Source of the DNA: an uncultured Erysipelotrichaceae bacterium
GTDB lineage: Bacteria > Bacillota_I > Bacilli_A > RF39 > UBA660
Reading direction: 5' to 3'
Assembly (NCBI GenBank): GCA_902793375.1
Contig: CADBDE010000004.1
Coordinates: forward strand, 20,799-84,798
DNA: 64,000 nt
Position 1 is the stretch's first letter; each line of letters begins with the position of its first letter. Below the pieces are notes generated by a model. It saw only the letters and a program-made list of their open reading frames with translations. It did no database searches and was not told the origin of the DNA. Positions 23,507-49,669 of the stretch are shown here, one piece after another. The position numbers were made by a program, and so were the translations under genes.

Positions 23507-24124
23507 TTATAAAATACTATTAATTATGCCATCAACAAACTCTTTAATTTTTCTAAAAATAGATGCAAAGAAATCAATAATCATATCAATTAGACTCTTA
23601 GATTTACTTTCTTCATCTTCTTTTATTTCTTCTTTTTCTTCTTTAATATCATCTTTCCAAATACCATTTTTTCTATCTTTTGCAAATTGCTGTGCATCTT
23701 TTATTGTTTTAGCATATATATAATTATCTTCAATATACATTGCTCTAGCATAGCCATTTTTAACTAAATCTTCTTGTAATAATAAATCATCTACAAAAAC
23801 CCATGCCTGAATTCGACCAAACTTATCTTCCTTTTCTATATTTGGTTCATATTGAATCTTAATTTGTTTTGCATTTGTTAATGCACTACAAACATATTCA
23901 CTAACAAAGCTTCCATTTATTTCATCATTTTCATTATCAATTATTTTTTCTTCTAATTGAATACCAATAAATTTAACTTTTATTTCACTAACTCCAAGAA
24001 TAAATCTCGCTGACTCAGAATTAACACAACCACTAAGTCTAACGATATCTTCCTGTTCACTAGCATTTGTTTTTATAGGAAGTATTAATACTAAAATAAT
24101 TATTATTAAAAATAATTTTTTCAT
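23507..24124 (-). CDS. secreted SNase (thermonuclease)-like protein with degenerate catalytic and Ca-binding residues
   Basis: Signal peptide MKKLFLIIIILVLILPIKTNA. The C-terminal half KFGRIQAWVFVDDLLLQEDLVKNGYARAMY...AKDRKNGIWK matches the SNase fold signature. The DGDT and RLxGIDxPE motifs are replaced by SGCV and KVKFIGIQLEE, and there is an acidic tail. Confidence 0.55.
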   Translation of the reverse strand: MKKLFLIIIILVLILPIKTNASEQEDIVRLSGCVNSESARFILGVSEIKVKFIGIQLEEKIIDNENDEINGSFVSEYVCSALTNAKQIKIQYEPNIEKEDKFGRIQAWVFVDDLLLQEDLVKNGYARAMYIEDNYIYAKTIKDAQQFAKDRKNGIWKDDIKEEKEEIKEDEESKSKSLIDMIIDFFASIFRKIKEFVDGIINSIL

Positions 24125-24144
24125 AATACATCCTTTCTAAATTA

Positions 24145-26595
24145 TTAATCATCAAAGAAATCATCAAAAAATTTATCTTCATCTGAAACATCATCTAATT
24201 TAATAGTTGGTGTTGGTTTCATTGTATTATTTTTTGGTTCTTCTTTTGTTTCTTTATATTGATGTAAGTCATATTCAAGAGACTTAAGAAGTTCTTCATC
24301 TTCTTTAGAATCTTTATATGGTTCAAATCTTTCATCATTATTCTTTGTTTCTTTAATTTCTTTATCTTCGTTTTTAATATCTTCATCAAAGTCTAAATTA
24401 TTTAATTTATCATTTATTTTCTTTTCTAACTCTTCATTCGAAATAATAAAATCGTCATCAATATTGTCATCAAAATCATCATCATCTAGTTTTTCTATTT
24501 TTTCTACTTTATTATAATCTGAAACAGTCTTAGGAGAATACTCTACTCTTTCCTTAATAGACTTATCTTCATTATGATTATAATTATTGATAGTGATATT
24601 ATTAATCTCTTTAGGTTCAGATTTCTTTTCTTCAACAACAGCTTCCTTAGTTTTTGCTGCCTCTTTCTTTTTCTTAGCTTCTTGTTCTTCTTTTTCTATT
24701 TCAGCTAATTTTTCATCAATCTTTCTTACCAAATCATTAACTGATAATTCTGGTTTCTTTCTATCCATCATAGAAGATGGTCCAAATGGTAAATCCATTC
24801 CCCTTTCAAATGGTGAAGGAATAGCTGGTCCACCACTATGATTATCTTCTCCAAGACTTGCCATCATTTCATTTATTTTTTTATTTTTTTGTTCTTTTAC
24901 AAACTCTCTTATATCAAAAATTGCAACTGGTTTTTTTTCTCTTACTGGATAATCAATTTTTGGAGATTTACAAGCACCCCAATCAATTTTAAAATCAGGA
25001 ACAAATGATGTTTTAAAAGGATTCTTTCTCATTCTTAATAAGATATGATCAAATTGTTTCATTCTTTGTAAGTCACTAACAGTAACAAGTGGAGTTGATG
25101 CTGTTTTATCATCTTTTTTAGATTTCTTTTCTCCACACAACTTACTTATTTCTTCAAGAGCTGCAAGCTCAGTTGAAATTAAATATATAATATTTCCACA
25201 GTTTCCTTTTATTGTTTCAGCATCATCTTTACCATAAACTTTATTTAACTGAGCGAAGTTCTGAATAATCATTGTAAATCTTATTTGTCTTGAACGAGCT
25301 GCAGTTATCATTGTAGTAACGTCTTTTAAAGGTGGCATATTTGCAAACTCATCAAGTAAGAAATTAGTTCTTACGGGAAGTGCTCCGCCATTTGTTTGAG
25401 CAACATCAATTAAAGTTTCATAAATTTGCTTAATTAGAATTGTTGCAAGTGAGTGATATGTCTTCTTTTCATCTTGAATTATTATGAAAAGTGCTGTTGG
25501 TTGTTTTCCAATTGAATCCATTTGGAAATCACTATAACTTAGCATTTCAGATAGATTTTCACGAGATGCAAACAATTTAACTTTTTGTTTAAATACAGAA
25601 ATAATTCCACCCTTAGTTTCACTTGGAGCCATAACAGTACCACTAGCATTTACGTAAGCAGCGCTTGCAGGATCTTTCATATTAAAATATTCTTTAATAT
25701 AAGTAGATCCACCAAATTTATCTTCTCCAACTGTTGCTGTCATATTAATACTATTGATATTAATTTTATCTTCAGTAGTATCTTCAAACATAGCAAGTGC
25801 AATACCTGAAAAATAGTCAGCAGCTGTTTTTTCCCAGAATGGATCATTATTTGCACTTGTTTCATCATACAAAATATTTAACGCAAGGTCATCAAGCAAC
25901 TCAATTGCTTTATCTTGATTACCATTTTTATATAATCTATAAGGAAGTTCTAGTGGATTCCAACTATTACCATTTTGTGGGTTACGGAAGTTTAATAAGA
26001 TAATATTATAACCATTTTTCTTAAGTAATCCACCTGCTTTTTCATATATTTCACCCTTTGGGTCAGTTACTACAACTGATTCACCTTTTTTTGCAAGAAC
26101 TTTGATGGTTGGTAAAATTGTATCTTGAGTTTTACCACTACCAGTAGCACCAATAACTAAAGTATGATAAGAACCATCATCTACCCATAATTCATTTCCA
26201 TCACTAATTAAAGGTACACCAGCATACTCTGATTTTAAAGCACCTGCTTCTACTCTTTTTACATCTTTATCCAATTTTATTTCTTTTGCTTTTGCCCAGT
26301 GACTATATCCTCCACCAGACTTTTCTCCGATGTTAATTCCAACGCCTTCCTCAAATTCAAAGAAATATGAATTTACACTCATAATCAATCCACCTAAAGC
26401 AATTAGATAAAATACAATTGTATAATATATATACTCAGGAGAAAAAGCTTCTAATGGATTTAATCCATAGAACACCCCTTCGCTTGCTAATTTTGGAATA
26501 TTTAATACTCCTAAAGCAATAACATACAATAAAAATGCTGCAAAAATTAAAAATATAATTACATCTCTTGTAGTTGCAACAAACTTGAATTTCAT
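24145..26595 (-). CDS. type IV secretion coupling protein (VirD4/TraG/TcpA-like T4CP)
   Basis: Two N-terminal transmembrane helices, Walker A VIGATGSGKTQDTILP and Walker B NFLLDEFANMPP. The last ~200 residues are acidic, low-complexity and D/E/K-rich. Confidence 0.8.
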   Translation of the reverse strand: MKFKFVATTRDVIIFLIFAAFLLYVIALGVLNIPKLASEGVFYGLNPLEAFSPEYIYYTIVFYLIALGGLIMSVNSYFFEFEEGVGINIGEKSGGGYSHWAKAKEIKLDKDVKRVEAGALKSEYAGVPLISDGNELWVDDGSYHTLVIGATGSGKTQDTILPTIKVLAKKGESVVVTDPKGEIYEKAGGLLKKNGYNIILLNFRNPQNGNSWNPLELPYRLYKNGNQDKAIELLDDLALNILYDETSANNDPFWEKTAADYFSGIALAMFEDTTEDKININSINMTATVGEDKFGGSTYIKEYFNMKDPASAAYVNASGTVMAPSETKGGIISVFKQKVKLFASRENLSEMLSYSDFQMDSIGKQPTALFIIIQDEKKTYHSLATILIKQIYETLIDVAQTNGGALPVRTNFLLDEFANMPPLKDVTTMITAARSRQIRFTMIIQNFAQLNKVYGKDDAETIKGNCGNIIYLISTELAALEEISKLCGEKKSKKDDKTASTPLVTVSDLQRMKQFDHILLRMRKNPFKTSFVPDFKIDWGACKSPKIDYPVREKKPVAIFDIREFVKEQKNKKINEMMASLGEDNHSGGPAIPSPFERGMDLPFGPSSMMDRKKPELSVNDLVRKIDEKLAEIEKEEQEAKKKKEAAKTKEAVVEEKKSEPKEINNITINNYNHNEDKSIKERVEYSPKTVSDYNKVEKIEKLDDDDFDDNIDDDFIISNEELEKKINDKLNNLDFDEDIKNEDKEIKETKNNDERFEPYKDSKEDEELLKSLEYDLHQYKETKEEPKNNTMKPTPTIKLDDVSDEDKFFDDFFDD

Positions 26596-26673: not shown

Positions 26674-27384
26674 TTAATTTCTTCTTGTTGTAATAATGAA
26701 TCCAATTATAAAGATTAAAAAGCATCCTAAAGCAATTAATAATATAACTGGGTTAATGTTTTTTTTCTCAACTTTATCTAAAACAGTTTGAGTATCTAAC
26801 GTAATATACAATTCTTCTTTACTACTTTTATCATCTTTAGATATTTCCCAGATATATTTTCCATCATCTTTCTTTTTTAAATTTGTAGATAAAACTTTAT
26901 AATTTGTATTTATATTTAGTTCTATATCATTTAATACTTCATAATCATTAAAATAATTCTTAGGAGATTTTCCACTTATTTTTAATACTTTTCCACTATA
27001 TTGAACAGAAAAAGCAGGAATTAACTCGTTTGCAATTGTTGAAAAAGTCATTTCACTAAAATCAAATTCATGACTAAGTTTAAATCCTACTTTCCCATCT
27101 TCATTAATATACTTTTTATCATAATATACACAATTATTAGTACATTCATTTTGTGAATGATATCCATTATAGTCAATATTTATATCTTGTTCTTCTCCAT
27201 ATAGTTTTGCATAATCATAAAAACTTTTTCCTGTTTCATCTTTAATATCTAAATTGTTAGAATTATTTTCTATAATTGACAATTCTTCTGTAATTTTCTC
27301 ATTTTCAATTGTTAAAGAATACTTTGCATTACATCCAGTTAAAACAATTGTTAATAATAAACTTATAATTAAAAATCTAGTCTT
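26674..27384 (-). CDS. lipoprotein with a C-terminal transmembrane anchor (possible T4SS accessory protein)
   Basis: Lipobox LLLTIVLTGC after MKTRFLIIS, and a C-terminal helix ILLIALGCFLIFIIGFII. The start is taken at MKTRF, with a GGA-rich region upstream. The track's longer start at 27444 would overlap the upstream gene. Confidence 0.45.
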   Translation of the reverse strand, partial: KTRFLIISLLLTIVLTGCNAKYSLTIENEKITEELSIIENNSNNLDIKDETGKSFYDYAKLYGEEQDINIDYNGYHSQNECTNNCVYYDKKYINEDGKVGFKLSHEFDFSEMTFSTIANELIPAFSVQYSGKVLKISGKSPKNYFNDYEVLNDIELNINTNYKVLSTNLKKKDDGKYIWEISKDDKSSKEELYITLDTQTVLDKVEKKNINPVILLIALGCFLIFIIGFIITTRRN

Positions 27385-27397
27385 CATAATTATCTCC

Positions 27398-30300
27398 TTA
27401 CCAAGATAACGAATTTCTATTTGATTCATTTGCATAATAATCATCTAAAAGCATTACTTCATATGTTTTTTGGCTTGAACCTAATAATTCTGACTTTGAA
27501 ATATTTCTTGTTTTACTGCCGTTTTCTGCAATATTAATGGCATTATCTGTTTTTCCAACGATCAACATAATATGATCAGCTCCACCTCTTAAATTATCAG
27601 AAAACAATAAATCTCCAGGTTTTATTGAATCAAATGCTTCTTCTGCAGAAGATATTGAAGTACTTCCTGCTGTTACTCTAAAATTAGGATATAGAGTTAT
27701 CCTAACACTACCAGGGTACAAACTTGCATCAAACATACCAACAGCATATGTAGAACCTTTTGTGCACCAGTCCATTCCACCATTACATAAGGCCCATCTA
27801 ACAGATGTTGCACAGTTAAGTCCGCTTCCTGCGCCTCCCCAGGCACCATTAACACCAAGCTTTCCATTTATATCTGGATTTCTTCCTCCATCTACTCTTC
27901 CACCTTGATGATCATATGGATATGTGTATCCACCAGTCATATCTGAAGTACATTTTAATAGTTGGAAACCTGCTTCTACTACTGCTTCTCTAGTTCCCAT
28001 TCCAGCATTTGAAACTTGTTCACCAATACAGTTATTTAAATCTCCAATAGTATGACCTGTTTTACTTACAGCATTTCCTATTGTTGCTCTTATAGGGGTA
28101 CCACCAACTATTTCCATATGATTATGTTCTTCATTAAATTCTCCTGAAGAACTGCCACTATTTCCGCTTCCTTTTCCACTTTCATTATCTCGTTTATAAA
28201 TGGCATAATTTGGACATTCTCCTTCTTTGATACTATCTTCTAGTCTTTTAAAGCTAACACCATAACTAACATTTCCTCTTTCAAGGAATAATTTAATTAA
28301 TGCGTGAGCATCATAACCAAATTTTGAGAAATATGCCATTCCATGTTGACTAACTCCTCTTCCATGTCCTCCAGTTGCATGATATTTATATCCGTATAAC
28401 ACGTTTCCATCTTCATCTGTTTTGCTACTTCCAGTTGGAGTCCAACAAGTTTCAGTTGTTGTTTGAGCTGGTTTTCCAACTTTCTTTCTTAATAAATTTT
28501 CTAAAGTATCTGAATACTGTGTACCCGGCATATCGTTATTACTTTGGAAACAAGGGCATTCTGCTCTTTTTCTTGAACTATCTGTAAGATATGAATCCTT
28601 TATAGGTAAATTTCTTTGTCCATCTGGTAAGTAATAGAATCCATTTATTGGTTTACTAGTTGTTGGACAAAAAGCATCATATTCTGTTTCTAAAACATTA
28701 TCTTTATCATATGGTGTTACAACGATTCCTCTAGTTTCTGTAACTGCTTTATATATTTCAGGATAATGTATTTTAGGATAATCAGGATCATAATTTGGAT
28801 TATCTTTCTGATCTTCATAACTTGGATCATATGTTGGATTATATTTCCACCACCAACATCCCATTGTTTGAGTACCAGTTATAACATCTGCACCACGTTC
28901 AACAATATTATAATAAGCTTCACTTCTTGTAAGTATAGCTTGTGCTTTTGCTACTTCTCCTGAAGTATTAAATGTTGCTAAAACTGATCCACCCACAAAA
29001 ATATCTTCAAAGTCTAATGTATAAATTGGGGAGTTTGGATCTTCTCTAAATTTAATTTTATCAAGTCCTCCCTTAATTACTGGATATCCATTACAATCTT
29101 TTCTAATTGATTCATAATAAGAATATATATCATTTGTAACTTCAATTATTGTTTTCTTATTAATCTCATAGTTTTTATCTAAATCATTGTCCCCTTCACT
29201 ACTTAAATAATCTTTTAAATATTTATGAATAAATCCATTTTTATTTAATAAATTCCAAAAATATACTCCACCACTATCAGGATCTTTTACATATTCATAT
29301 TCATTATCTTTATTATTAGTTAAGTAATTTTTTCCTTGTTTTGTTGATAAAACTCTAACGGTAGGTACTATAGATAATTCTCCATTTGGAGCATCAGTAC
29401 ATTTTGCATTTACTTCTGCACCTACAGCATCTCTAAATCCTTTAAACCAGTTAACTGGGTTTAACCATCCATACCATGGAAATTCATTTGTTTCTAAATC
29501 ATTTTGAGCATACTGTTCCATTGTTTGTTTTGAACCACAATTCACTTTTATTTCATTTTGATTATTTATATAAGTTAAAAGTTGCATTTTAGAAAGAAGC
29601 TCCGCTTGATCTCCCCATGAAGATAAAAATTCTTTCCAAGTTACTATTTTTCCATTAAAAGAATAACATTTATCTTCACCACATGATGATTCATTTTCAA
29701 TTGGTTGTATTATTTCATTATTTATTGGAGTTATTAAAGTAGCAATAATAAGATATCTATCAATTTCAACTTTATATTGATCACTAACTTTATTAACTTT
29801 ATCAACTATTTTTTCATATAATCCTGGATAATTTGCAAAAATATTTACAATTTTGTCATCTTCTATATAACTTTCAGATTGTACTGTCCCACCATTTTCA
29901 TTACTATAAATCTGACTATCAGCAGTTTTTGCTAGCATGATTACTAAGAAAAACACTAATAATATAGGTAAACAAAATCCAAAGAAAAATAATAATGCAG
30001 TTATTTTTCTCTTATCTTTTTGTATTTCACGTTTAACATTTCTTATCCCTTCAGATTCAGTATCAGCTTTGGTATAAGCATCTAAATACTTTTGTCCTTT
30101 AGGTGTATTCAAGGCAGCTTTTGTTGCTAATTCAGCAACAGGACCTGCTGTGCTTGCAGCTTTTGTTATTGCTTTTTTTGCTGATTCTTTCTTTTGTTTT
30201 TGTTTTACTTGCTCCATTTTGGATTTCATTGCACCAGTTTGATCTATTCCATTTTTGTAATTATTAGAAGCATTATATCCATTGTTGCTATAAAGTGGCT

Positions 30301-30403
30301 TTTTTTGTTCAATTTGACTATTCATTTTTAAATCTTGATTAAATACCCTATTACCGTTATTTTGTTGATTGCTATTTTTATGATTATTTGCAAAATAAGC
30401 CAT
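27398..30403 (-). CDS. T4SS-associated bifunctional cell-wall hydrolase (VirB1/CwlT-like: central glycoside-hydrolase-like region plus C-terminal NlpC/P60-CHAP peptidase)
   Basis: N/Q-rich N-terminus, a transmembrane anchor (ALLFFFGFCLPILLVFFLVIMLA) and a large extracellular region. The C-terminal peptidase motifs are CATSVRWALC...PGDLLFSDNLRGGADHIMLIVG, an NlpC/P60-type Cys...His arrangement. Confidence 0.6.
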   Translation of the reverse strand: MAYFANNHKNSNQQNNGNRVFNQDLKMNSQIEQKKPLYSNNGYNASNNYKNGIDQTGAMKSKMEQVKQKQKKESAKKAITKAASTAGPVAELATKAALNTPKGQKYLDAYTKADTESEGIRNVKREIQKDKRKITALLFFFGFCLPILLVFFLVIMLAKTADSQIYSNENGGTVQSESYIEDDKIVNIFANYPGLYEKIVDKVNKVSDQYKVEIDRYLIIATLITPINNEIIQPIENESSCGEDKCYSFNGKIVTWKEFLSSWGDQAELLSKMQLLTYINNQNEIKVNCGSKQTMEQYAQNDLETNEFPWYGWLNPVNWFKGFRDAVGAEVNAKCTDAPNGELSIVPTVRVLSTKQGKNYLTNNKDNEYEYVKDPDSGGVYFWNLLNKNGFIHKYLKDYLSSEGDNDLDKNYEINKKTIIEVTNDIYSYYESIRKDCNGYPVIKGGLDKIKFREDPNSPIYTLDFEDIFVGGSVLATFNTSGEVAKAQAILTRSEAYYNIVERGADVITGTQTMGCWWWKYNPTYDPSYEDQKDNPNYDPDYPKIHYPEIYKAVTETRGIVVTPYDKDNVLETEYDAFCPTTSKPINGFYYLPDGQRNLPIKDSYLTDSSRKRAECPCFQSNNDMPGTQYSDTLENLLRKKVGKPAQTTTETCWTPTGSSKTDEDGNVLYGYKYHATGGHGRGVSQHGMAYFSKFGYDAHALIKLFLERGNVSYGVSFKRLEDSIKEGECPNYAIYKRDNESGKGSGNSGSSSGEFNEEHNHMEIVGGTPIRATIGNAVSKTGHTIGDLNNCIGEQVSNAGMGTREAVVEAGFQLLKCTSDMTGGYTYPYDHQGGRVDGGRNPDINGKLGVNGAWGGAGSGLNCATSVRWALCNGGMDWCTKGSTYAVGMFDASLYPGSVRITLYPNFRVTAGSTSISSAEEAFDSIKPGDLLFSDNLRGGADHIMLIVGKTDNAINIAENGSKTRNISKSELLGSSQKTYEVMLLDDYYANESNRNSLSW

Positions 30404-30478
30404 ATTATCACCACCTTATTATAAATATCAACCTATTTTAATTATAACACTTATAGAGTAAAAATCATAGAAAAAGAC

Positions 30479-30507
30479 ACAAAAAAAAGACTACTTTTGT
30501 AGTCTTA
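30479..30507 (-). terminator. intrinsic terminator-like hairpin between virB4 and the hydrolase gene
   Basis: The minus strand reads AAGACTAC-AAAA-GTAGTCTT followed by a T8-9 run, 5 nt after the VirB4 C-terminal part's stop. Confidence 0.4.
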
Positions 30508-30511
30508 ATTT

Positions 30512-43115: not shown

Positions 43116-44054
43116 CTATTGAATTTGTGTACCATCTATTATAGTGTTATTAGTTGGCACTTTAACGTCTTCTGGAATAACAGCTGATAAATTTAAAATA
43201 TAATCTTTTAAATATTGACTAGATACTGTAGATTGTATTTCTTTATCTCCGTCTTTGAAATATGCAGTTGTTGGAATAGGAATAACATCAATTCTGGCAA
43301 ATCCACTATTTCCAGATGAAATTGAATAGTTATTTATTGCTGTAATATCTCTCATTAATAAATGTTGTTCTTCAGGTAAAGAGAACATAATTACATATGG
43401 AACTCTTGAACTTTCTGAATCATCAAAAACGTTTTGTCCATCTGCAGTTTTAACTTGTAAAACTTTAATATTTTCTAAGAATTTACCAACAAGTGCTTTA
43501 TTGTCTTCTTTAGTTGAAAGATAAATATCTATATACCTACCTGGTAAAATTGAATTTGTAAAACTTGAAAGCATATTAACAGTTAAATAATATAAAGTTT
43601 CACCTTCAGGCACACTTAATAAAGCTTCATCAGGTAAAGCATCTTTGGAAACTATTGATCCACTATAAAACAAACTACCCTCTTGAATTGTAGTATCATA
43701 ATTAACATACTTTCCAATTACATATTCAAGTCTAGAATAATAATCTCCAGAAAGTGCCCCTTGTGGAACTTCTACATATCTAATATCTTCTTCTGTAATT
43801 AAATGTCTTGCAGTAAGTCTTCTTGTTGCAACTGGAACTCTAACAGGTTGTGTAGCAGATCTAATTCTCATGTTATATCCAATAATTAAAACTAATACGA
43901 CACCTATTGCACATAGAGTTGTAACAAAACTTTTACTTTTCATCATTCTCTTTAACTTTGATACATTCGCATTACTACCTTTAGTATTACCAATATTAGT
44001 AACATTGTTATTCATATTCATATTACCATTATTCATATAATTCACCCTTTCCAT
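43116..44054 (-). CDS. CpaB/RcpC-like Flp pilus assembly protein (SAF domain)
   Basis: An N-terminal transmembrane helix, then VPVATRRLTARHLITEEDIRYVEVP and ILPGRYIDIYLS, matching the CpaB pattern (VpVlvAardl..G..lt..dl..v..p...LPGDRVDVLlT). Confidence 0.6.
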   Translation of the reverse strand: MERVNYMNNGNMNMNNNVTNIGNTKGSNANVSKLKRMMKSKSFVTTLCAIGVVLVLIIGYNMRIRSATQPVRVPVATRRLTARHLITEEDIRYVEVPQGALSGDYYSRLEYVIGKYVNYDTTIQEGSLFYSGSIVSKDALPDEALLSVPEGETLYYLTVNMLSSFTNSILPGRYIDIYLSTKEDNKALVGKFLENIKVLQVKTADGQNVFDDSESSRVPYVIMFSLPEEQHLLMRDITAINNYSISSGNSGFARIDVIPIPTTAYFKDGDKEIQSTVSSQYLKDYILNLSAVIPEDVKVPTNNTIIDGTQIQ

Positions 44055-44179
44055 TCTAGTAACATAAGCCCTCTAGTCTATCATCTATTATATATATTAG
44101 TATAGCTTAATTAAAATAAAAAGGCAATACAAGAAATAATTATTATTAAATAAAATTGTTCAAAAAATATCAACTTGTG

Positions 44180-44208
44180 TAAAAAAAATGAAAGAGTAAT
44201 CTTTCATT
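44180..44208 (-). terminator. Rho-independent terminator separating the giant-protein transcription unit from the tad/T4SS unit
   Basis: The minus strand reads ATGAAAGA-TTAC-TCTTTCAT followed by a T8 run, 54 nt after the stop of the 177-aa ORF. Confidence 0.5.
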
Positions 44209-44261
44209 CTTTTTAATTGACATAAACTTAATAATTATTTCAAATATAGTACAAATAATTA

Positions 44262-44795
44262 TTATGATTTTTTAAAATCTACATAATTATCTGGTGTTGG
44301 CGTCTCTAATATTCCTGTAATTGAATTTACTATATCTGATGGAATATTTGTTTCTCCATTACTAAAATCTATTTTTAAAAATGTTGCAAAATCAAAATTA
44401 GTTGTTGATATCAAAGATAACGATACTTTAGGAGGGCATTCATCTATGTCATGTATAACAACTCTATAATTTCTATTTAGTTCCGCATTCTCTGCAAACC
44501 TTCTTATAAAACTTTCCACGAATTTTTCTCTTATTATTCTTATTGTTCCAGGTTCTCCTGCTATACAATGCATAGAATCTTCTTCTCCATCTTCACCTTT
44601 TGTAATACCATCATATCCTACCCCAATTCGGTATGCAGTCAAATCTACAGCATCATACATAGCTGCTTCAGTTACTTCCTTTAACAAATAGTAATTTTGT
44701 TCATTACTTACTACAATATGTCCAAAGAAATTTATTAGCACTATTCCACCCATTCCTAGAACAGCAAATAAATACATCCACATTGACTCTTTCAT
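44262..44795 (-). CDS. N-terminally anchored hypothetical protein (177 aa)
   Basis: A transmembrane helix YLFAVLGMGGIVLINFF followed by a soluble domain with 2 Cys. It lies immediately downstream of the giant exoprotein. Confidence 0.4.
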   Translation of the reverse strand: MKESMWMYLFAVLGMGGIVLINFFGHIVVSNEQNYYLLKEVTEAAMYDAVDLTAYRIGVGYDGITKGEDGEEDSMHCIAGEPGTIRIIREKFVESFIRRFAENAELNRNYRVVIHDIDECPPKVSLSLISTTNFDFATFLKIDFSNGETNIPSDIVNSITGILETPTPDNYVDFKKS

Positions 44796-44814: not shown

Positions 44815-47800
44815 TTATTTAGAATTAGGATATGTCGCATGAATAGTTCTTGATCCTATTCCATGACTATTCTTAAATAATGTTGAGAACTTCGATTCTC
44901 TTATAAAACTACTCTTATATTCTTGTACTTTATCCGTACTTCCTGTTGTTATTCTATCTAGTCTTGCATACACTCTTCTTTTATTTTTATATCCTTCTCC
45001 ACTTTTTTCTGTATCTTCTCTTATCTGTCTTATATCTTCTGCTGTCATATCTATTATATACTCTACTGCTTTATTTGAATTTGGTCCCGTTACACTCGTT
45101 TTATCATTTTCATCATTTGTTATATAATGTGACAATCCTCTCCAGTTTGTTCCTACTATTCTTTTACCTTTCTCATATGGCTCTTCTGTCTCTTCTGAAT
45201 TTGGAAATGGATTTGCTACATTTATCGATCTAAATATATATGGTTCATCTGATATATCATCTTCTATTGGTTTATAACATTTATTTATGCAGCTTGCTTT
45301 ATCTGAGAATCCATATAATACATATCCATCACAATAATAATTTACTGTATTATAATCGCTTGTCTTCTGTGGACATGGTACTCTACATTTCTTAAAACAA
45401 TCTTCTTCATCTTTAAATCCATTTATGTCATTTGCCCACTTTGTCTTACAATATTCTTTTATCATTACTTGATTTAAATTTTTTTCTTTTGCATAACAAT
45501 CTTTTTCTGTATTATCACCTGATGGTGTTGTATCCGGTTCTTCTTTATCATTTGATTTATAACAATATGCATTACATTTCTTGTTTTCTAATTTTGTTAC
45601 ATACCCTACTATAAGTTCTCCTTTTTCTAATGGTTTATCTAATCTTATTTCCAATTCATTCGTTGTATTTGTTACTGATTTTTTTATATTCTTCATATAT
45701 AAATATGGTTCACTATCCATCTTTCTTGAATTAAATTCTGTTAATGTTGGTATATCATGATATGTTGTGTATGTATAATATAAATTTGCATTATATGTTT
45801 TCATGTTATATAGTTTTCCACTCGTGTCTCCTGGTGCTGGTTCTATAATACAACGTGCTTCACATACTGGTCCACTATATAAATCTACATTATCTGGACA
45901 AGTTACTGTTTCCCCATTGATTAATGTTATTATTCCTGTTACATTATGTGTTTCTACTGATCTACTATTATGATTTACTATTGTTATTTTATTGCCATTT
46001 ACTTCTTGAATATTTCCTGTATCATCTATTTCTACTTTTGCTATTTGAGAACTTGGTATATCATATACGACTGTTGCTGTTACACTACTTGATTCATATT
46101 GCTTATTTCCTAGTTTTGTTCCATTTGAATCAAACTTTATTCTACACGTATAATCACTTTGTGGTACTTTATATGTACATGTTTCATCTACATTATAGTA
46201 TGTTTGCCCATCTCCTGCTTTTGCTTCTACACTTGCTTTGATTTGATTTTCTACATCTGGTTTTATTTCAAAGCTTGTATAATGCGTACTACTTCCATGT
46301 ATCATTTCTCCTACTCCTGCTTTGTAACATTCATTATTCCCCGGTGCTTCATACACTTCCGCTGTTCCATCTGTTCTTAGACATACTTTCTTTAATGTAT
46401 ATGTTAATCTTCCTCCTGATTGCGATGTATATTGGTTTATTGCTATTGTTGATATATTTCTATCTGCTACCATTGTTACCTGATCTACATCATCTGTTTG
46501 TAATACCACTGTTGCTTTCATACTACTTCCCGCTGAATTCTTCTCTACTACTAACTCTGTTGTTTTTGTTTCTGGATTCAACGCTTCTAATTTATATTCA
46601 TTTGTTGTCGTTTTTAGTGTTGATTTTGAAAAATCAAATCCTTTTTCTTCAAAATTTGTTTTCCCTTCTCCATCTAAATTACCTTCTGCTTTCAATGCTT
46701 GTGTTCCTGCTGTCATATTTGAATTATCTGGATTTACTTTTGATACTTCATCATTATAATTTTTTAATATTAATAACATTCTATCTCTTTGATATTTTGT
46801 GTTTCTTGCTGGTATTGTTGCATAGTCAAATTTCCACTGTTCTTTATTTATAAAATATGTACAATACTCATATCCTCCATGTACTATTGGATATGTAAAT
46901 CCTAACCCTGCTGCTAATTTTATTTTTGTTGTATCTGTAAACTCTGAATCTACTACTAATTTACATATTGAATTTATATATGTTCTTTGGTCAAATGTCT
47001 TATCATCTGAATCATTTCCATTAAAGTCTGTTATATAATCTCCTTCACATGGTGTTACATGTTTTCCTTTTATATATTGAGTTGGAACGTAATGTCCTGT
47101 ATTATCCGACGCCACATTACACTTTGAATCAAATACCTTTAATTCTGTTTTTCCATATCTTGATGCTATTCCATCTATTACTGAATTTGTACATCCATCT
47201 ATTGATTGAAGATTTGTATTATTACTTGATGTTGATTTCGTATCTGGATCTCTTCCATATCTGTATTTACAGTTATTTACTAAACAATTCTTTTTTCTTT
47301 TCCTTGCATTTCCTCTTAAATCATAGTCTACTTTATGTTCGCAATAGTTTTCTGCACACTTCAAATATTCATCGGATCTATCTCCATAGTTTGCTAAAAC
47401 ATTTTCACATCCTGTTGGACAATCTATCATATTTTCTAGATAAAAATGTCTTATTCCTTCATATGATGGATTTGAAGAATTACAACTTCCAAATAGTTGA
47501 TATTTATAACTACTTCCTGGTCCTACTAGTGCTCTATCTTTATCTGGTCCTATATAATATTCATATACATGGTTTCCAGTATTTGGATCTACATATGGTT
47601 TTGTTTCATCCTCTGGATCCATTACTTGGTGTTTTCCTTCATCTGATCCACATGTATTGACTGCTCTTCTTAAAAATGAAGAATTAGTTGAGCTTTGATT
47701 CCTTGAAACTACAATTTTAGAAGTACCATCACATTCTGTTCCTATTATATTATATGTTTCTTTTGACCCCTTATATCCTGCTTGTTGATCTATTTCATAT

Positions 47801-48876
47801 CCATAATAACTACATTTATCACCAGTACCACCAGTACATGTGCTTTTTTTTGTTTTCTTACCATTTTCATCTACATCATAAGTTGTAGTCCATTTTTTAC
47901 ATACATTTTTTTCTACTACCGTTTTATTGTAGTTACTTCCTATATTGTCACACCAATCTTTTCCTCCACCTTCTGGTACTTTTTCCCAAGCAGATTTAGG
48001 ATAAATATCACCTTTTGATTCGACAGGTCCAATTGTAGCAAGATGTATGCTATGACAATTTTCTTTTCCTGTTTTTATTCTTTGTACAACTTCTACCTGT
48101 ATATAGTATTGATTAATTTTATCATCATCAAGTTTTACTTTAAACTGTGTTTCAATATCTTTTCTACTTCCAAAATAATTATCTTTTAATACTTTTATAT
48201 AATTATTGTGTTCTACTGAATATTCTGTAATTCCATCATCAGTATATATCCTATCAGATGGATAATTTGAATCATATGTTATAAGTGACTTTTTATAGTG
48301 AATTATTGTATGTGGTGATTTCATATCAAACTTATATTTATTAAATCCAGCATGACAATTATATCCTTTTTGTTTTATTGTACCATCTGCTGGGCATCCA
48401 CCTTCTTCATCATCTTGCTGTTCACATATTATTTCATCTTGAGATATACCTTCAATACCAATTGCACCTTCTGGTCCAGAACCTGTATCACCAAGATCAC
48501 CCCAGTTTGTTGATAAATCTCCAGAATCCATTGTTTCAACTGGGAACATAGTTCCTGATTCTGGAGGTGGTAAAATTTGAGTTAATCCATAACCACCTTT
48601 TTGTAACTGTCCATAAGTAGTAGGATAAGCTCCTCCCTCAGTACTATCAAAATTATCAAACATACTTGAATGTGCAATCAAAATTGGAACAGAATTTTTA
48701 ACTTGTTGCGGAGCTCCACTTCCACTATACATTACTAAAGTAAATTTATAACCATAAGCATTTAATGCTGTTGATTCTGTTGTATCAGCTAGCGTATCTA
48801 TAATTCTTGTATTAATTGCTAATACTAAAAGTATTATAAATATCATTATTAATCCAAGATATTTAATTCTTTTCAT
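44815..48876 (-). CDS. giant secreted cysteine-rich protein (1353 aa), candidate adhesin or pilus-associated exoprotein
   Basis: Signal peptide MKRIKYLGLIMIFIILLVLAIN. More than 70 cysteines in recurring CxxC / C..C patterns, G/T/N/Y-rich, with no LPXTG motif and no further transmembrane segment. Confidence 0.6.
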   Translation of the reverse strand: MKRIKYLGLIMIFIILLVLAINTRIIDTLADTTESTALNAYGYKFTLVMYSGSGAPQQVKNSVPILIAHSSMFDNFDSTEGGAYPTTYGQLQKGGYGLTQILPPPESGTMFPVETMDSGDLSTNWGDLGDTGSGPEGAIGIEGISQDEIICEQQDDEEGGCPADGTIKQKGYNCHAGFNKYKFDMKSPHTIIHYKKSLITYDSNYPSDRIYTDDGITEYSVEHNNYIKVLKDNYFGSRKDIETQFKVKLDDDKINQYYIQVEVVQRIKTGKENCHSIHLATIGPVESKGDIYPKSAWEKVPEGGGKDWCDNIGSNYNKTVVEKNVCKKWTTTYDVDENGKKTKKSTCTGGTGDKCSYYGYEIDQQAGYKGSKETYNIIGTECDGTSKIVVSRNQSSTNSSFLRRAVNTCGSDEGKHQVMDPEDETKPYVDPNTGNHVYEYYIGPDKDRALVGPGSSYKYQLFGSCNSSNPSYEGIRHFYLENMIDCPTGCENVLANYGDRSDEYLKCAENYCEHKVDYDLRGNARKRKKNCLVNNCKYRYGRDPDTKSTSSNNTNLQSIDGCTNSVIDGIASRYGKTELKVFDSKCNVASDNTGHYVPTQYIKGKHVTPCEGDYITDFNGNDSDDKTFDQRTYINSICKLVVDSEFTDTTKIKLAAGLGFTYPIVHGGYEYCTYFINKEQWKFDYATIPARNTKYQRDRMLLILKNYNDEVSKVNPDNSNMTAGTQALKAEGNLDGEGKTNFEEKGFDFSKSTLKTTTNEYKLEALNPETKTTELVVEKNSAGSSMKATVVLQTDDVDQVTMVADRNISTIAINQYTSQSGGRLTYTLKKVCLRTDGTAEVYEAPGNNECYKAGVGEMIHGSSTHYTSFEIKPDVENQIKASVEAKAGDGQTYYNVDETCTYKVPQSDYTCRIKFDSNGTKLGNKQYESSSVTATVVYDIPSSQIAKVEIDDTGNIQEVNGNKITIVNHNSRSVETHNVTGIITLINGETVTCPDNVDLYSGPVCEARCIIEPAPGDTSGKLYNMKTYNANLYYTYTTYHDIPTLTEFNSRKMDSEPYLYMKNIKKSVTNTTNELEIRLDKPLEKGELIVGYVTKLENKKCNAYCYKSNDKEEPDTTPSGDNTEKDCYAKEKNLNQVMIKEYCKTKWANDINGFKDEEDCFKKCRVPCPQKTSDYNTVNYYCDGYVLYGFSDKASCINKCYKPIEDDISDEPYIFRSINVANPFPNSEETEEPYEKGKRIVGTNWRGLSHYITNDENDKTSVTGPNSNKAVEYIIDMTAEDIRQIREDTEKSGEGYKNKRRVYARLDRITTGSTDKVQEYKSSFIRESKFSTLFKNSHGIGSRTIHATYPNSK

Positions 48877-48979
48877 TATTGTACCTCCTTTCGATTATCA
48901 TTATATTTCCTTAGACTATCTACTATATAAATTATATATCTTTTTTTTCATTTATAAAAGACTAGTTTTATAATATTTT

Positions 48980-49669
48980 TTATTCGTCTAACTTAATTCT
49001 ATTCTTTCTTCTTATTATACTTATTACTACTTTGTATAATATGAATCCTACTATTATTACTGTTATTGGTATTGTTATTATTTTATTATTTGTATAAAAA
49101 TCTATTATTTTTTCTATTATATTCTTTTTTGTTTCTTCTTTTTCTTCTGGTTCTTTTTCTACTAATGATGATTTATATTTATTTAACTCTTCTTCAAATA
49201 CTTCATCATTTGCTATTTCTCCTGCATACCATTTATTACACATATAGAATTCTTCATATTCTATACATTCATCTCTTTCACTATATCTATTATATTTTGG
49301 TAATGATATTTTCTTTGTATATAAATACTCTTCTACACAATCAGTTTCGTATCCGCCATATAATTTTACATCATATGTAGTCCCTCCTGTTACAATCGCT
49401 GGTATTTCTATTGTTCCTGTAGTTGTTTCATAAAAATCACCATTAAACATTACTAAAATATTAGGATCTACATTATTTACCGTTAATACATAATAGTAAT
49501 TATGATTACTATCAAATTTTAATTCATAACTTACTTCTGCTTTATATGCTATCATTTTTAAATTACTAAATTTTCTTGATGTACATAATGCATCAACTTT
49601 TATTGTTACTCCAAATACTAAAACTAATAATATAATCACAAGTAAAGATTTTTTTATTTTATTATTCAT
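48980..49669 (-). CDS. secreted protein with a C-terminal membrane anchor (229 aa)
   Basis: Signal peptide SLLVIILLVLVFGVTIKVDA, 4 cysteines, and a C-terminal helix IITIPITVIIVGFILYKVVISII followed by RRKNR. Confidence 0.4.
   Translation of the reverse strand: MNNKIKKSLLVIILLVLVFGVTIKVDALCTSRKFSNLKMIAYKAEVSYELKFDSNHNYYYVLTVNNVDPNILVMFNGDFYETTTGTIEIPAIVTGGTTYDVKLYGGYETDCVEEYLYTKKISLPKYNRYSERDECIEYEEFYMCNKWYAGEIANDEVFEEELNKYKSSLVEKEPEEKEETKKNIIEKIIDFYTNNKIITIPITVIIVGFILYKVVISIIRRKNRIKLDE

Follow-up and report, generated by a model that had tools for sequence, protein, structure and literature searches.

A stretch of 64 kb (64,000 nucleotides, hereafter the window), from an uncultured, genome-reduced gut member of the Bacilli that presumably belongs to the GTDB order RF39, carries genes resembling a Gram-positive-type type IV secretion system (T4SS) next to genes resembling a Tad pilus. 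The locus raises the question of whether these are one machine or two, whether it is mobile or fixed, and what it may transport. We consider it probable that the locus is a domesticated, vertically inherited monoderm (MPF_FATA-like) T4SS with an integral type-IV-filament module. A relative is encoded by 526 species-representative genomes, and the VirB4 conservation and gene-order figures given below refer to the best 80 of these.

Layout of the block and its T4SS genes

Across the whole window, the genes of the locus were found to run unbroken on the minus strand from 49669 down to 23507. The earlier note had placed 23 consecutive genes here; the continuity holds, but we count 21 ORFs. All are intact, and gene calls on identical contigs match ours over the stretch those contigs cover, from the Cys-rich protein exo1353 to the lipoprotein. 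Nearly the whole window is encoded on the minus strand, so that co-direction by itself is no sign of an operon. The Tad-like genes, described earlier as interleaved with the T4SS genes, form a single contiguous block at 37.0-44.1 kb. Three terminator-like hairpins split the locus:

44160..44230, minus strand, hairpin between the surface-protein and filament blocks (-19.6 kcal/mol, z = -5.0, then a U run)
36590..36640, minus strand, hairpin directly 3' of the VirB2-like gene (10-bp stem, then a T run; z = -3.5)
30460..30520, minus strand, hairpin after VirB4 (8-bp stem, then a T run; z = -5.15)

The two named earlier are both real (z = -5.0 and about -5.2), and the one after the VirB2-like gene is a third. 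Promoter-like matches (11/12) lie at 37022-36994, by the VirB2-like gene, and at 39360-39332, just upstream of the gene for a 65-aa protein, the latter among the best in the set. The T4SS genes are as follows:

24145..26595, minus strand, VirD4 type IV coupling protein of 816 aa whose C-terminal tail is long and charged
26674..27387, minus strand, lipoprotein of 237 aa as called, with an LTGC lipobox and a TM segment at the C-terminus
27398..30403, minus strand, membrane-anchored cell-wall hydrolase candidate, 1001 aa
30512..32299, minus strand, VirB4 ATPase domain, 595 aa
32292..32843, minus strand, TrsD/TraC-like protein of 183 aa as called, the VirB4 N-terminal domain encoded separately
32824..33150, minus strand, VirB3-like protein, 108 aa
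33169..35256, minus strand, VirB6-like polytopic channel protein, 695 aa
35346..36560, minus strand, membrane-anchored extracellular protein, 404 aa, 8 Cys
36634..36966, minus strand, VirB2-like T4SS pilin candidate, 110 aa

VirD4 matched Pfam T4SS-DNA_transf (4.8e-60) and TraG-D_C (3.1e-25) and passed the cut-off of the NCBIfam CD1115 family (297.7 bits against 250). VirB4 was recognised by AAA_10 (5.1e-13), P-loop_TraG (1.4e-11), the Mycoplasma-ICE profile VirB4_plasma (1.5e-106) and CD1110 (2.3e-53). Its separate N-terminal protein matched positions 98-281 of VirB4_plasma (1.1e-16), with a weak PF26593 TraC-like match on record, and the VirB3-like protein weakly matched positions 4-95 of the fused Mycoplasma-ICE VirB3-VirB4 profile (0.0051); the VirB3-like family profile also detected the DUF5592 protein of a C. 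perfringens plasmid (4.4e-4). The VirB3, VirB4 N-terminal and VirB4 C-terminal ORFs cover successive parts of the fused profile; whereas VirB3 and VirB4 are joined in the Mycoplasma ICE profile, here they are three separate ORFs. VirB4 had been described as split in two. It is indeed two genes, but this is its normal state, as gene calls on the related contigs examined also give the N-terminal part a gene of its own.

The VirB6-like protein matched Pfam TrbL_4 (1.1e-5) and, each below its cut-off, Mbov_0396 (4.7e-8), MMCAP2_0566 (1.1e-7) and pLS20_p028 (2.7e-4); its family profile detected the pLS20_p028 protein of Paraclostridium (3e-5). The VirB2-like candidate matched PF18895 T4SS_pilin (3.4e-5) with 24.3 bits, under the cut-off of 26.6, and a "TrbC/VirB2 family" gene is similarly placed, between filament block and T4SS core, on a C. 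perfringens plasmid. Thus, of the core proposed earlier, VirD4, VirB4 and the VirB6-like protein are borne out by profiles and the VirB3-like protein weakly so, but the VirB8-like assignment found no database support in profile searches. The hydrolase, proposed as a CwlT-like two-domain enzyme, gave a weak SpoIID match only (0.0031) and no match in a PDB sequence search; two orthologues (L089, L090) have a precomputed SpoIID match, and the protein at this position in a third locus (L031) has a CHAP domain (1.6e-15). Neither the lipoprotein nor the 404-aa protein matched a Pfam or NCBIfam family; the former is kept in about 22 loci and the latter in 58, in many of them downstream of VirD4. We conclude that the block is predicted to encode a Gram-positive-type T4SS.

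The filament module and the surface proteins

The Tad-like block comprises the following genes:

43116..44054, minus strand, CpaB/RcpC-like protein, 312 aa
41086..43092, minus strand, ATPase of the PilT/VirB11/CpaF superfamily, 668 aa, its C-terminal tail repetitive and Q/P-rich
40157..41056, minus strand, single-domain GspF/PilC/TadB-type platform protein, 299 aa
39364..40167, minus strand, second platform-like polytopic protein (TadC-like), 267 aa
39101..39298, minus strand, candidate major subunit, 65 aa, six-residue leader MKEATG, then a hydrophobic helix
38041..39058, minus strand, two tandem paralogues (162 and 163 aa), candidate minor subunits, MRESIGG leader and hydrophobic helix
37032..38021, minus strand, cytoplasmic two-domain protein, 329 aa, the "TadZ" of the earlier note

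The CpaB-like protein matched Pfam SAF (5.6e-6) and RcpC (7.9e-5) and, under its cut-off, TIGR03177 (1.4e-10); its family profile detected the CpaB-position protein of a genuine Alkaliphilus Tad locus (hmmsearch 1.3e-6, hhalign 91.9%). The ATPase (Pfam T2SSE, 7.9e-26) is equally far from the VirB11, TadA and TrbB profiles and from the CpaF, HP0525 and FlaI structures; profile and structure comparison thus do not allow it to be assigned to CpaF rather than VirB11. Among plasmid genes it comes closest to T4SS-linked "CpaF/VirB11" ones (E 1e-32 to 2e-35, as against 9e-18 for a genuine CpaF). The C-terminal tail holds 87-bp repeats and is shorter or missing in relatives.

The 299- and 267-aa proteins had no Pfam match and were recognised by structure and profile searches only. 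The platform profile was used to rank every ORF of 50 aa or more from four plasmid loci; the top six places went to the proteins that follow the ATPase on pBS72, Paraclostridium and C. perfringens plasmids and to genuine TadB/TadC, and the platform proteins here are nearer their plasmid counterparts than genuine TadB/TadC. On the Paraclostridium plasmid, the 267-aa family profile detected the second protein after the ATPase (7.3e-6); it also detected Alkaliphilus TadC (1.5e-3). Support for a platform role is weaker for the 267-aa protein than for the 299-aa one.

The small membrane proteins of the module share a six-residue M[KR]E[AS]xG leader, which across the paralogue family reads M[KR][ED][AS]xG. 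Across 25 species, the 65-aa protein always has G6, E7 and L8. The paralogue pair is duplicated DNA (76% identity over 156 nt), and in related loci both match one position, present there in single copy. None of the small proteins matched a pilin family or carries the G/xxxxE(Y/F) motif; profile comparison showed no likeness of the 65-aa protein to Flp pilins or plasmid peptides, and the paralogues had no TadE match in Pfam or by profile comparison. The 329-aa protein had no Pfam, NCBIfam or PDB match, and hhalign scored it at 0.8-1.1% with Alkaliphilus TadZ and at 10.8% with the Walker A region of a ParA. Its alignment contains a conserved GxKNVTxxAGATTLIY motif and VLVDLN, and it is kept in L031, a locus without ATPase, platform or pilin genes. 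Since no prepilin peptidase was found in the window, the Tad set is incomplete. Of the full set reported earlier, the CpaB-like protein, the ATPase and, via structure and profile searches, TadB/TadC stand; TadZ, the pilin and the TadE-like proteins gained no database support.

The earlier note knew of no described system with both gene sets in one block. The same architecture is, however, found on pLS20-family plasmids, pBS72, pAW63/pXO2 and C. perfringens and Paraclostridium plasmids, with a common order of adhesin, ATPase, two platform-like membrane proteins, small TM proteins and VirB2/VirB6/VirB3/VirB4/hydrolase (gene tables of pLS20, with the Tie adhesin, PMC8557374, and pAW63, PMC1196294). 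There the ATPase is labelled "VirB11" and the platform proteins "unknown", and a fusion of T4SS and pilus motor is thus present, unrecognised, on well-known Bacillus conjugative plasmids. The plasmid systems lack the CpaB-like and putative TadZ-like genes, both present here. Neither a Flp-type pilin nor a prepilin peptidase was found in this locus or window. The locus appears to be a relaxase-less variant of a known T4SS class, related to the pLS20-type plasmid and Mycoplasma ICE systems. By the same comparisons, its "Tad" genes are best described as a type-IV-filament module of this T4SS class and not a separate adhesion operon, made up of one PilT/VirB11/CpaF-superfamily ATPase, two single-domain GspF/TadB-type platform proteins and small membrane proteins, with the CpaB-like protein as a further part here.

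Upstream lie genes for surface proteins and a divergent neighbour:

48980..49669, minus strand, signal-peptide protein with a C-terminal TM anchor, 229 aa, first of the variable surface-protein block
44815..48876, minus strand, Cys-rich secreted protein (exo1353), 1353 aa, candidate adhesin
44262..44795, minus strand, DUF5411 protein (Pfam DUF5411, 5.2e-36), 177 aa, with an N-terminal TM segment
49798..50223, plus strand, thioredoxin-fold lipoprotein (Thioredoxin_2 2.8e-9, TraF 6.7e-6)

The 229-aa protein matched no Pfam or NCBIfam family and has homologues in a single related locus out of 80 (L009), where the gene has moved. The giant Cys-rich exoprotein noted earlier is confirmed (39 Cys, 2.9%); it had no Pfam match, and counterparts of 968 and 1099 aa in relatives show Flg_new and faint TNFR/ephrin-like Cys-rich matches. 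Its position is occupied by the Tie adhesin in pLS20, a 1416-aa surface protein in pAW63 and a thioester-domain protein in Paraclostridium. The DUF5411 gene is kept upstream of CpaB in L039, L051, L074 and L084. The thioredoxin-fold gene adjoins the locus, at differing positions, in L013, L024 and L031; possibly, its product is an accessory disulfide oxidoreductase of the system.

What the system may move

We favour contact-dependent transfer, with DNA the most likely cargo. The ATPase and platform would assemble a short filament or piston from small proteins, for which the 65-aa protein and the tandem paralogues are candidates. This filament would cross the wall where the hydrolase has opened it and show a target cell the variable Cys-rich protein; a channel of VirB3, VirB4 and VirB6, supplied by VirD4, may then move a macromolecule. 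Nothing in the locus sequence points to the cargo. By analogy with Mycoplasma chromosomal transfer, DNA moved without a canonical relaxase has close to an even chance; proteins, the next option, seem somewhat less likely.

It is rather unlikely that the locus encodes the T4SS of a symbiont dependent on other cells, used for effectors or for acquiring nutrients; such a machine would attach the genome-reduced bacterium to another cell and move proteins or other molecules, not DNA. Such a system would have the same architecture and conservation, and there is a precedent in the chromosomal, mostly relaxase-less, MPF_FATA-related T4SS of Patescibacteria, which includes VirB2-like pilins and, as a protein of its own, a TrsD resembling the VirB4 N-terminus, and which epibiotic growth requires (PMC12102498). 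Genome reduction and numerous auxotrophies are on record for RF39 (PMC6784871), which reportedly also lacks de novo nucleotide synthesis (PMC13155120), and the exo1353 counterparts, the candidate adhesins, differ between strains. However, no effector genes or translocation signals were found, the VirD4 family is defined on conjugative elements, the close homologues with known function are all conjugative, and there is no evidence of RF39 cells attaching to other cells.

One further gene lies at the end of the locus:

23507..24124, minus strand, secreted staphylococcal-nuclease-like protein, 205 aa

The nuclease, correctly identified before (SNase 3.3e-10; Thermonuclease NucI 1.6e-17, under its cut-off), is what might suggest a competence-like machine in which filament and nuclease capture and process outside DNA that enters via the T4SS channel, to serve genetically or to supply nucleotides. 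The reported lack of nucleotide synthesis would fit, as would T4SS-type uptake by H. pylori ComB (review, PMC12857230), Tad/Flp-dependent transformation of Micrococcus (PMC4322843) and Tad-dependent DNA uptake by nucleotide-auxotrophic Liberibacter (PMC8513845). We nevertheless regard DNA uptake as improbable: ComB has no VirD4 (PMC12857230), whereas VirD4 is kept in nearly all relatives here; the SNase gene adjoins VirD4 in a minority only (L007, L008, L011, L013, L014, L027, L038); and ComEC and ComEA are absent from the window.

Linkage of the two parts and fixation on the chromosome

More doubtful still is the coincidence of two independent neighbours, a stand-alone Tad-type adhesion pilus with which the cell would colonise the gut, beside an unconnected T4SS. 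Hairpins do lie between the blocks, the CpaB-like and putative TadZ-like genes are Tad features missing from the plasmid systems, and in about 10-15 related genomes no filament module adjoins the T4SS core, which shows that the two parts are separable. The co-occurrence raised in the earlier note is thus not universal, but in 56 of the 80 loci the blocks stay adjacent with their gene order unchanged. Moreover, the linkage recurs on unrelated plasmid families, the platform proteins and ATPase are nearer T4SS-linked plasmid versions than genuine Tad ones, and Flp-type pilin and prepilin peptidase are missing. The same nearness of the platform proteins contradicts a Tad insertion nested in an ordinary ICE. 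Because VirB4 and TadB co-diverge (Spearman 0.83 over 56 genomes), the comparison supports T4SS and Tad-like genes as one evolutionary unit.

As to mobility, the window has, as stated in the earlier note, no relaxase, recombinase or replication gene: no relaxase, recombinase, integrase or Rep family matched any of its ORFs of at least 90 aa, the absence of a relaxase extending to a few flanks. The housekeeping genes that the earlier note saw around the locus are confirmed, over 23 kb on one side and 14 kb on the other. Gene order is common to the best 80 related loci, and the bPH/holA flank to many of them, in several species. A repeat search found no att-like repeats, GC3 is host-like (0.130 in the locus, 0.105 in the flanks), and no PLSDB plasmid has a VirB4 of at least 60% identity. 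The pairwise identities of VirB4, VirD4 and TadB track that of the neighbouring bPH gene (Pearson 0.83-0.88). The locus is thus, to judge from these comparisons, chromosomally fixed, as the earlier note held, and vertically inherited in hundreds of uncultured, RF39-like Bacilli MAG species. That it is an ordinary ICE or plasmid remnant, decaying or with relaxase and integrase just outside the window, is very improbable and largely refuted, for although all its closest characterised relatives are mobile elements, the flanks, GC3 and missing att repeats speak against it, and the decayed ICE suggested earlier is contradicted by intact ORFs and by a VirB4 that is 77-93% identical across the best 80 of the 526 genomes and more conserved than holA (mean pairwise identity 0.83-0.89, against 0.60 for bPH and 0.61 for holA).

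Organization of the locus and its T4SS core

The window is very AT-rich, with a GC content of 20-33%, and nearly all of the ORFs listed in it are on the minus strand, only a handful being on the plus strand. The locus consists of 21 consecutive minus-strand ORFs running from 49669 down to 23507. The earlier note had counted 23 genes, a number that we revise to 21: over the stretch from the gene for exo1353, a Cys-rich secreted protein of 1353 aa, to the lipoprotein gene, which is the part covered by public contigs coding for identical proteins, the gene calls on those contigs are concordant with ours. In the order of transcription, the genes code for:

Genes 1-4, minus strand: anchored protein of 229 aa; secreted protein of 1353 aa with 39 cysteines (exo1353); DUF5411 protein; CpaB-like protein
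Genes 5-8, minus strand: T2SSE-family ATPase; polytopic protein of 299 aa; polytopic protein of 267 aa; 65-aa peptide
Genes 9-13, minus strand: paralogues of 162 and 163 aa; cytoplasmic protein of 329 aa; VirB2-like protein; anchored protein of 404 aa
Genes 14-17, minus strand: VirB6-like protein; VirB3-like protein; separate VirB4 N-terminal domain; VirB4 ATPase
Genes 18-21, minus strand: hydrolase candidate of 1001 aa; lipoprotein; VirD4; secreted SNase-like nuclease

Three terminator-like hairpins, located 3' of the DUF5411 gene (44.2 kb), of the gene for the VirB2-like protein (36.6 kb) and of virB4 (30.5 kb), suggest that the locus is organized in at least four transcription units. Promoter-like matches were sought at 22.5-40 kb; of the best three, two are directly upstream of the genes for the 65-aa peptide and the VirB2-like protein, a placement that we regard as anecdotal because the total number of matches in that region was no higher than in shuffled sequence. 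The mechanical ORFs of two genes are probably too long. The lipoprotein (26674-27444) probably starts at MKTRF, giving a protein of 237 aa with an LTGC lipobox, and the gene for the VirB4 N-terminal domain (32292-32888) is called as 183 aa on the contigs with identical proteins. With the shorter forms, the apparent overlaps with the neighbouring genes shrink.

HMM searches bore out the T4SS components recognized earlier, namely VirB4, VirD4 and, through weak matches, the VirB6- and VirB3-like proteins. VirD4 matched the Pfam family T4SS-DNA_transf (4.8e-60) and scored 297.7 bits with NF045973 (conju_CD1115), above the curated cut-off of 250; the prediction of a VirD4/TcpA-type coupling protein is solid. 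VirB4 has the Pfam domains AAA_10 and P-loop_TraG, and in NCBIfam it matched VirB4_plasma (1.5e-106), CD1110 (2.3e-53) and TIGR00929 (4.3e-27). Its nearest named family is thus that of the Mycoplasma ICEs, ahead of the clostridial CD1110, and the Mycoplasma ICE families (Mbov_0396/0397) are the best NCBIfam matches for both VirB4 and the VirB6-like protein. The scores fall below the family cut-offs (357 vs. 590 bits). At family level the VirB4 assignment is solid; since all of its scores are below the equivalog cut-offs, the protein is placed outside the named subfamilies.

The VirB3 and VirB4 proteins are fused in the Mycoplasma ICEs but split in the locus, where three ORFs cover positions 4-95, 98-281 and 295-893 of the fused profile. 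The same split of VirB4 is found in the gene calls of the related contigs examined and of plasmid systems. Thus, VirB4 is indeed split, as observed earlier, but the split is not damage, because the three ORFs match consecutive stretches of the profile and because it recurs in relatives and on plasmids.

The VirB6-like protein matched TrbL_4 (1.1e-5) and Mbov_0396 (4.7e-8), and its family profile matched a pLS20_p028 protein (3e-5). The VirB3-like protein matched DUF5592 (4.4e-4) and, over positions 4-95, the fused profile (0.0051). For the VirB2-like family, no match to the TrbC/VirB2 protein annotated on the C. perfringens plasmid was obtained. The VirB6-, VirB3- and VirB2-like assignments are based on matches that are weak but consistent in position. 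The 1001-aa hydrolase candidate matched SpoIID (0.0031) at most and no PDB sequence; evidence for a hydrolase comes mainly from its orthologues, for which a SpoIID match is precomputed or which have a CHAP domain in the corresponding place. We did not recover the VirB8-like protein of the earlier note, as neither the 404-aa protein, a 256-aa protein nor the other proteins of the locus gave a family match.

A predicted filament module shared with pLS20-type conjugation operons

The T2SSE-family ATPase (7.9e-26) belongs to the PilT/VirB11/CpaF superfamily, within which it is equidistant from VirB11, TadA and TrbB in searches against profiles (VirB11, 5.5e-31; TadA-type TIGR03819, 4.6e-29) and from CpaF, HP0525 and FlaI in searches against structures (CpaF, 1e-17; HP0525, 6.5e-17). 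Two 87-bp tandem repeats and a third, diverged and partial copy (41316-41510) code for its Q/P-rich C-terminus. In relatives the ATPase varies between 426 and 626 aa, indicating that this tail is lineage-specific and variable.

The two polytopic proteins following the ATPase, of 299 and 267 aa, had been named TadB and TadC. Neither matched Pfam at E values up to 10, NCBIfam or, in profile searches, PDB sequences, and hhalign probabilities stayed below 45%, whether the two were compared with each other or either of them with single plasmid proteins. With 204 cluster representatives among 1.84 billion, the family of the 299-aa protein is narrow. An AlphaFold (AF2) model made from a shallow alignment had a pLDDT of 57, and one made with distant relatives added a pLDDT of 80.8; in a Foldseek search of the model against the PDB, the highest-probability matches were GspF domains, at E values (1.9-4.8) that are not significant alone. 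Independently, we searched the ORFs of four plasmid loci with a profile of the 299-aa family. Its top six matches comprised the membrane proteins encoded after the ATPase in pBS72 (1.8e-18), Paraclostridium (7.6e-12) and C. perfringens, as well as the two proteins annotated as T2SS-F family (TadB/TadC) in a genuine Tad locus from Alkaliphilus. The 267-aa family profile matched the second plasmid protein and TadC, more weakly. On the strength of these matches, we accept both proteins as predicted single-domain platform proteins with the T2SSF fold. Their identity as platform proteins thus stands through the profile search, although neither is matched by Pfam or NCBIfam families even at permissive thresholds.

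The CpaB assignment was confirmed, as the protein has SAF and RcpC domains (Pfam) and aligned with the protein at the CpaB position of the Alkaliphilus Tad locus with an hhalign probability of 91.9%; its match to TIGR03177 (1.4e-10) is below the cut-off. The 329-aa protein, by contrast with its earlier designation as TadZ, had no relative outside the lineage in Pfam (E up to 10), NCBIfam or profile searches against the PDB, and hhalign gave 0.8-1.1% to the Alkaliphilus TadZ and 10.8% to the Walker A region of ParA. The pattern of its motifs is merely suggestive of a degenerate ParA-like fold.

The small proteins (the 65-aa peptide and the families of 130-160 aa) share a 6-residue leader, M[KR][ED][AS]xG, with an invariant Gly at its end, and a hydrophobic helix thereafter. 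In the 65-aa family, the motif MK(E/A)A(T/S)G-ELN is invariant and there is no Glu at +5. No similarity of the small proteins to Flp, TadE or the plasmid peptides was detected. They are therefore candidate pilin-like proteins in form only, by virtue of the short Gly-ending leader and the hydrophobic helix; they lack the G/xxxxE(Y/F) motif, and the earlier view of TadE-like pseudopilins was not sustained. The genes for the 162- and 163-aa proteins (38041-39058) arose by tandem duplication, and recently, their DNA being 76% identical over 156 nt. Both paralogues match a single position in related loci, pointing to one copy there.

No prepilin peptidase (TadV/CpaA, A24 family) was found among the window ORFs scanned. 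With no Flp motif and, in the window, no peptidase, the module is not the complete Tad set that had been described, nor a canonical Tad system. Rather, we take it to comprise a genuine motor and platform of the type-IV-filament kind, together with small proteins that are candidates for the subunits. The Tad pili of the Alkaliphilus pB6464 locus and of Caulobacter (Cpa) resemble it in having a bifunctional-type ATPase, two single-domain platform proteins, CpaB, a candidate major subunit of ~50-65 aa and candidate minor subunits of ~130-160 aa in a Tad-like order. They differ from it in the Flp motif, the TadV/CpaA peptidase, and recognizable TadZ and TadE proteins, whereas the module of the locus is embedded in a T4SS and its ATPase is no closer to the Tad CpaF than to VirB11.

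Firmicutes plasmids that share the layout of the locus were reached by tblastn of the ATPase and VirB4 against PLSDB. Systems with this layout are those of pBS72, the pLS20 family and pAW63/pXO2/pBT9727 (all Bacillus), and of the plasmids NZ_CP073071.1 (C. perfringens) and NZ_CP079739.1 (Paraclostridium). Their layout begins with a large surface protein or adhesin, small proteins, a 'CpaF/VirB11' ATPase and one or two membrane proteins of ~250-280 aa; continues with TM proteins of ~120 and ~50-70 aa, a TrbC/VirB2-like protein, VirD4 (CD1115) and VirB6 (pLS20_p028); and ends with a VirB3-like DUF5592 protein, a VirB4 N-terminal-like protein of ~200 aa, VirB4, a lytic transglycosylase/C40 hydrolase and a MobP2 relaxase. 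Genes 34-54 of pLS20 (PMC8557374) and CDS 26-6 of pAW63/pXO2 (PMC1196294) are in the same order, and in both descriptions the ATPase is VirB11 and the next proteins are unknown or hypothetical. The locus thus shares synteny and homologous platform proteins with the pLS20-type operons, at protein identities of about 23-32%. The MobP2 relaxase, the replication/partition genes and mobility are features of the plasmids, whereas the locus is chromosomal, has no relaxase in the window and is inherited vertically; conversely, the CpaB-like and 329-aa proteins are in the locus and were not seen on the plasmids.

The ATPase of the locus matches those of the plasmids at E values of 1e-32 to 2e-35 and a genuine CpaF at 9e-18, and is thus much closer to the former; the platform proteins are likewise nearer to the plasmid versions than to genuine TadB/TadC. 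Together with the shared layout, this leads us to conclude that the filament module is, as judged from sequence, an integral part of a monoderm T4SS class. That a Tad operon landed in an ICE was rejected, since the ATPase and platform proteins are closer to the T4SS-linked plasmid ones. The combination of T4SS and Tad genes, thought earlier to be unprecedented, has the same gene order on Firmicutes plasmids, pLS20, pAW63 and pXO2 included.

Because the same profile matches the plasmid proteins and genuine TadB/TadC, conjugation operons of the pLS20/pXO2 type appear to contain GspF-type platform proteins annotated as unknown. The hypothetical membrane proteins in question, coded for after the 'CpaF/VirB11' gene by L088:19461-20282 (B. 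subtilis pBS72), L006:21001-22538 (Paraclostridium) and L005:21041-22661 (C. perfringens), score from 1.8e-18 to 5.4e-6 with the platform profile; their positional counterparts are genes 38/39 of pLS20 and CDS 20/21 of pAW63. We had considered the C. perfringens locus to be 'pCP13-like', a label now withdrawn since the Pcp locus of pCP13 has no CpaF-like gene (PMC8941779); the filament module is absent from pCP13. The hidden platform proteins suggest a type-IV-filament module in Gram-positive systems described as lacking a pilus and VirB11; a 2025 review holds that VirB11 is universally absent from Gram-positive T4SSs (PMC12857230). If so, conjugation systems like those of pLS20 and pXO2, which make up an entire Gram-positive class, would contain a type-IV-filament motor whose existence reviews deny. 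No relevant paper on pLS20 with Tad or a platform protein was found in the open-access literature.

Chromosomal setting and distribution

No relaxase, recombinase (integrase or DDE) or replication families were found among the ORFs of at least 90 aa scanned across the 64-kb window, in agreement with the earlier reading, and no relaxase families in the flanks of four related loci (L031, L041, L089 and L090). The att-like repeats were AT-rich chance matches only, and the GC3 of the locus (0.130; flanks, 0.105) matches that of the host. A foreign origin suggested by GC content was rejected, since only codon positions 1 and 2 show the excess, which ftsZ, ftsK and BipA have as well. With no relaxase, integrase or att sites in the window, the locus does not qualify as an ICE or a plasmid. 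Its neighbours are divIVA, sepF, ftsK, ftsZ, ftsA, holA, dagK, bipA and similar genes. The cell-division neighbourhood also harbours, at an unusual place, a HerA/DUF87-type ATPase of 592 aa (4480-6258), flanked by sepF/divIVA and by M16 peptidases and ftsK.

Relatives of VirB4 are encoded by 526 genomes (one genome per species, GTDB r232). In the best 80 of the 526, all of them MAGs of uncultured bacteria, VirB4 is 77-93% identical. The labels of these MAGs are Bacilli, Tenericutes, Erysipelotrichaceae, Clostridium sp. CAG:710 or Candidatus Onthousia, and two of them are closed chromosomes (1.31 and 1.52 Mb). No plasmid in PLSDB had a VirB4 at least 60% identical. We take CAG-710 and Onthousia to be placed in the GTDB order RF39. 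Because of this placement, and because RF39 is known to be mislabelled as Tenericutes with UGA as a stop codon (PMC8629427), we believe that the lineage carrying the locus is the order RF39, whose members are uncultured, genome-reduced and multiply auxotrophic (PMC6784871; PMC13155120).

The T4SS and filament halves stay together, with gene order kept across both, in 56 of the 80 related loci, which upholds their earlier pairing, and the bPH/holA flank is present in at least 11 species. In pairwise identity, VirB4, VirD4 and TadB co-vary with the product of the neighbouring bPH gene (Pearson 0.83-0.88), as VirB4 does with TadB (Spearman 0.83, 56 genomes), the pairs being non-independent in each case. 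Mean pairwise identity is 0.83-0.89 for VirB4 vs. about 0.60 for bPH/holA.

In about 10-15 related genomes, no filament block adjoins the T4SS core; the flanks of the two examined consist of housekeeping genes and contain no relaxase. The ATPase, platform and pilin genes are missing next to the core in L031 (Clostridium sp. CAG:710), L040-L042, L046, L055 and others. L031 keeps the gene for the 329-aa 'TadZ-like' protein directly beside trx and dagK; its retention without the motor genes suggests that this protein works with the T4SS core and not with the filament motor. The size of the surface-protein block differs from strain to strain. In L009 (12557-17300), the homologues of exo1353 and of the 229-aa protein are downstream of VirB4 and not upstream of the filament block, indicating that the surface-protein cassette is mobile within the locus.

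The locus is a variant of a known T4SS class, and its combination of genes is not in itself new; the unusual part is its chromosomal fixation in a genome-reduced lineage. Two points are of specialist interest, the platform proteins hidden in Gram-positive T4SS operons and the T4SS-filament hybrid highly conserved throughout the RF39-like lineage. No open-access paper mentioning such a hybrid in RF39-like bacteria was found, and in the literature searched no paper mentioning both RF39 and type IV secretion connects them in its title or abstract.

Possible function and related systems

The RF39-like Bacilli, a never-cultured group with strongly reduced genomes, are common inhabitants of human and animal guts. 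A machine of 26 kb that hundreds of species retain, and that is better conserved than a replication gene, is probably central to their lifestyle. We envisage that the ATPase and platform proteins would assemble the small proteins with the leader into a short filament or piston, that the filament would cross the wall at an opening made by the hydrolase, and that it would show the variable Cys-rich surface protein, the positional analogue of the pLS20 adhesin Tie, to a target cell. The VirB3/VirB4/VirB6 channel and VirD4 would then translocate a cargo.

We favour DNA as the cargo, if by a judgement that falls somewhat short of even, because VirD4 and all characterized relatives are conjugative, and because the closest VirB4 family is that of the Mycoplasma ICEs. 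These are not known to have a recognizable relaxase, a wall hydrolase or a filament module; their T4SS mobilizes chromosomal DNA, and they carry a DDE recombinase and excise. A protein or effector cargo, as proposed for the Patescibacteria, is by analogy a serious if somewhat less probable alternative. Uptake of DNA through the machinery seems improbable. We consider it rather unlikely that the hybrid is a lineage-defining organelle of the RF39-like group, in which many biosynthetic pathways have been lost, serving either for docking onto other cells to obtain DNA, nucleotides or other macromolecules or for relaxase-free exchange of chromosomal DNA. Were it so, this abundant gut group would be contact-dependent symbionts or parasites of other microbes, in parallel to Saccharibacteria.

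In gene architecture, the closest system is the pLS20/pBS72/pXO2-type conjugation operon; in biological situation, it is the chromosomal, relaxase-less T4SS of the Patescibacteria (PMC12102498). The latter is MPF_FATA-related, chromosomal, mostly relaxase-less and widespread in a genome-reduced lineage, and its components include VirB2-like pilins (PF18895) and TrsD, a separate protein resembling the VirB4 N-terminus (PMC12102498). It differs in belonging to another phylum, in that VirD4 is usually unlinked to virB4 there but inside the locus here, and in that no integrated ATPase/platform module has been described for it (PMC12102498). In the thin pilus of IncI R64/TP114, in PAPI-1 and in the Kil Tad and needleless T3SS of Myxococcus, a type IV filament machine cooperates with a second machine, for secretion or transfer, in a contact-dependent manner (PMC12857230, PMC9045228, PMC12075869), as we envisage for the locus, but these are diderm systems with canonical pilins, prepilin peptidases and separate gene clusters.

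Next to the locus, a thioredoxin-fold lipoprotein (49798-50223, plus strand) matched the Pfam family TraF of the F plasmid (6.7e-6); it is also beside the T4SS locus in L013, L024 and L031, at shifting positions. Possibly, it serves the many extracellular cysteines. A second thioredoxin-fold protein (56730-57272, minus strand) carries DUF6568. The two thioredoxin-fold proteins, together with the Cys-laden exported proteins of the locus, hint at extracellular disulfide chemistry in a gut anaerobe.

Elsewhere in the window, a C39-peptidase ABC exporter of the bacteriocin type (15422-18818 group) is followed by plus-strand ORFs of 226 and 153 aa that gave no family match, and the group adjoins tRNA-Gly and tRNA-Cys (18930-19086). 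It may be a small bacteriocin or immunity island. Two clostripain-family (C11) peptidases, of 671 and 655 aa, form a tandem pair at 59225-63229.
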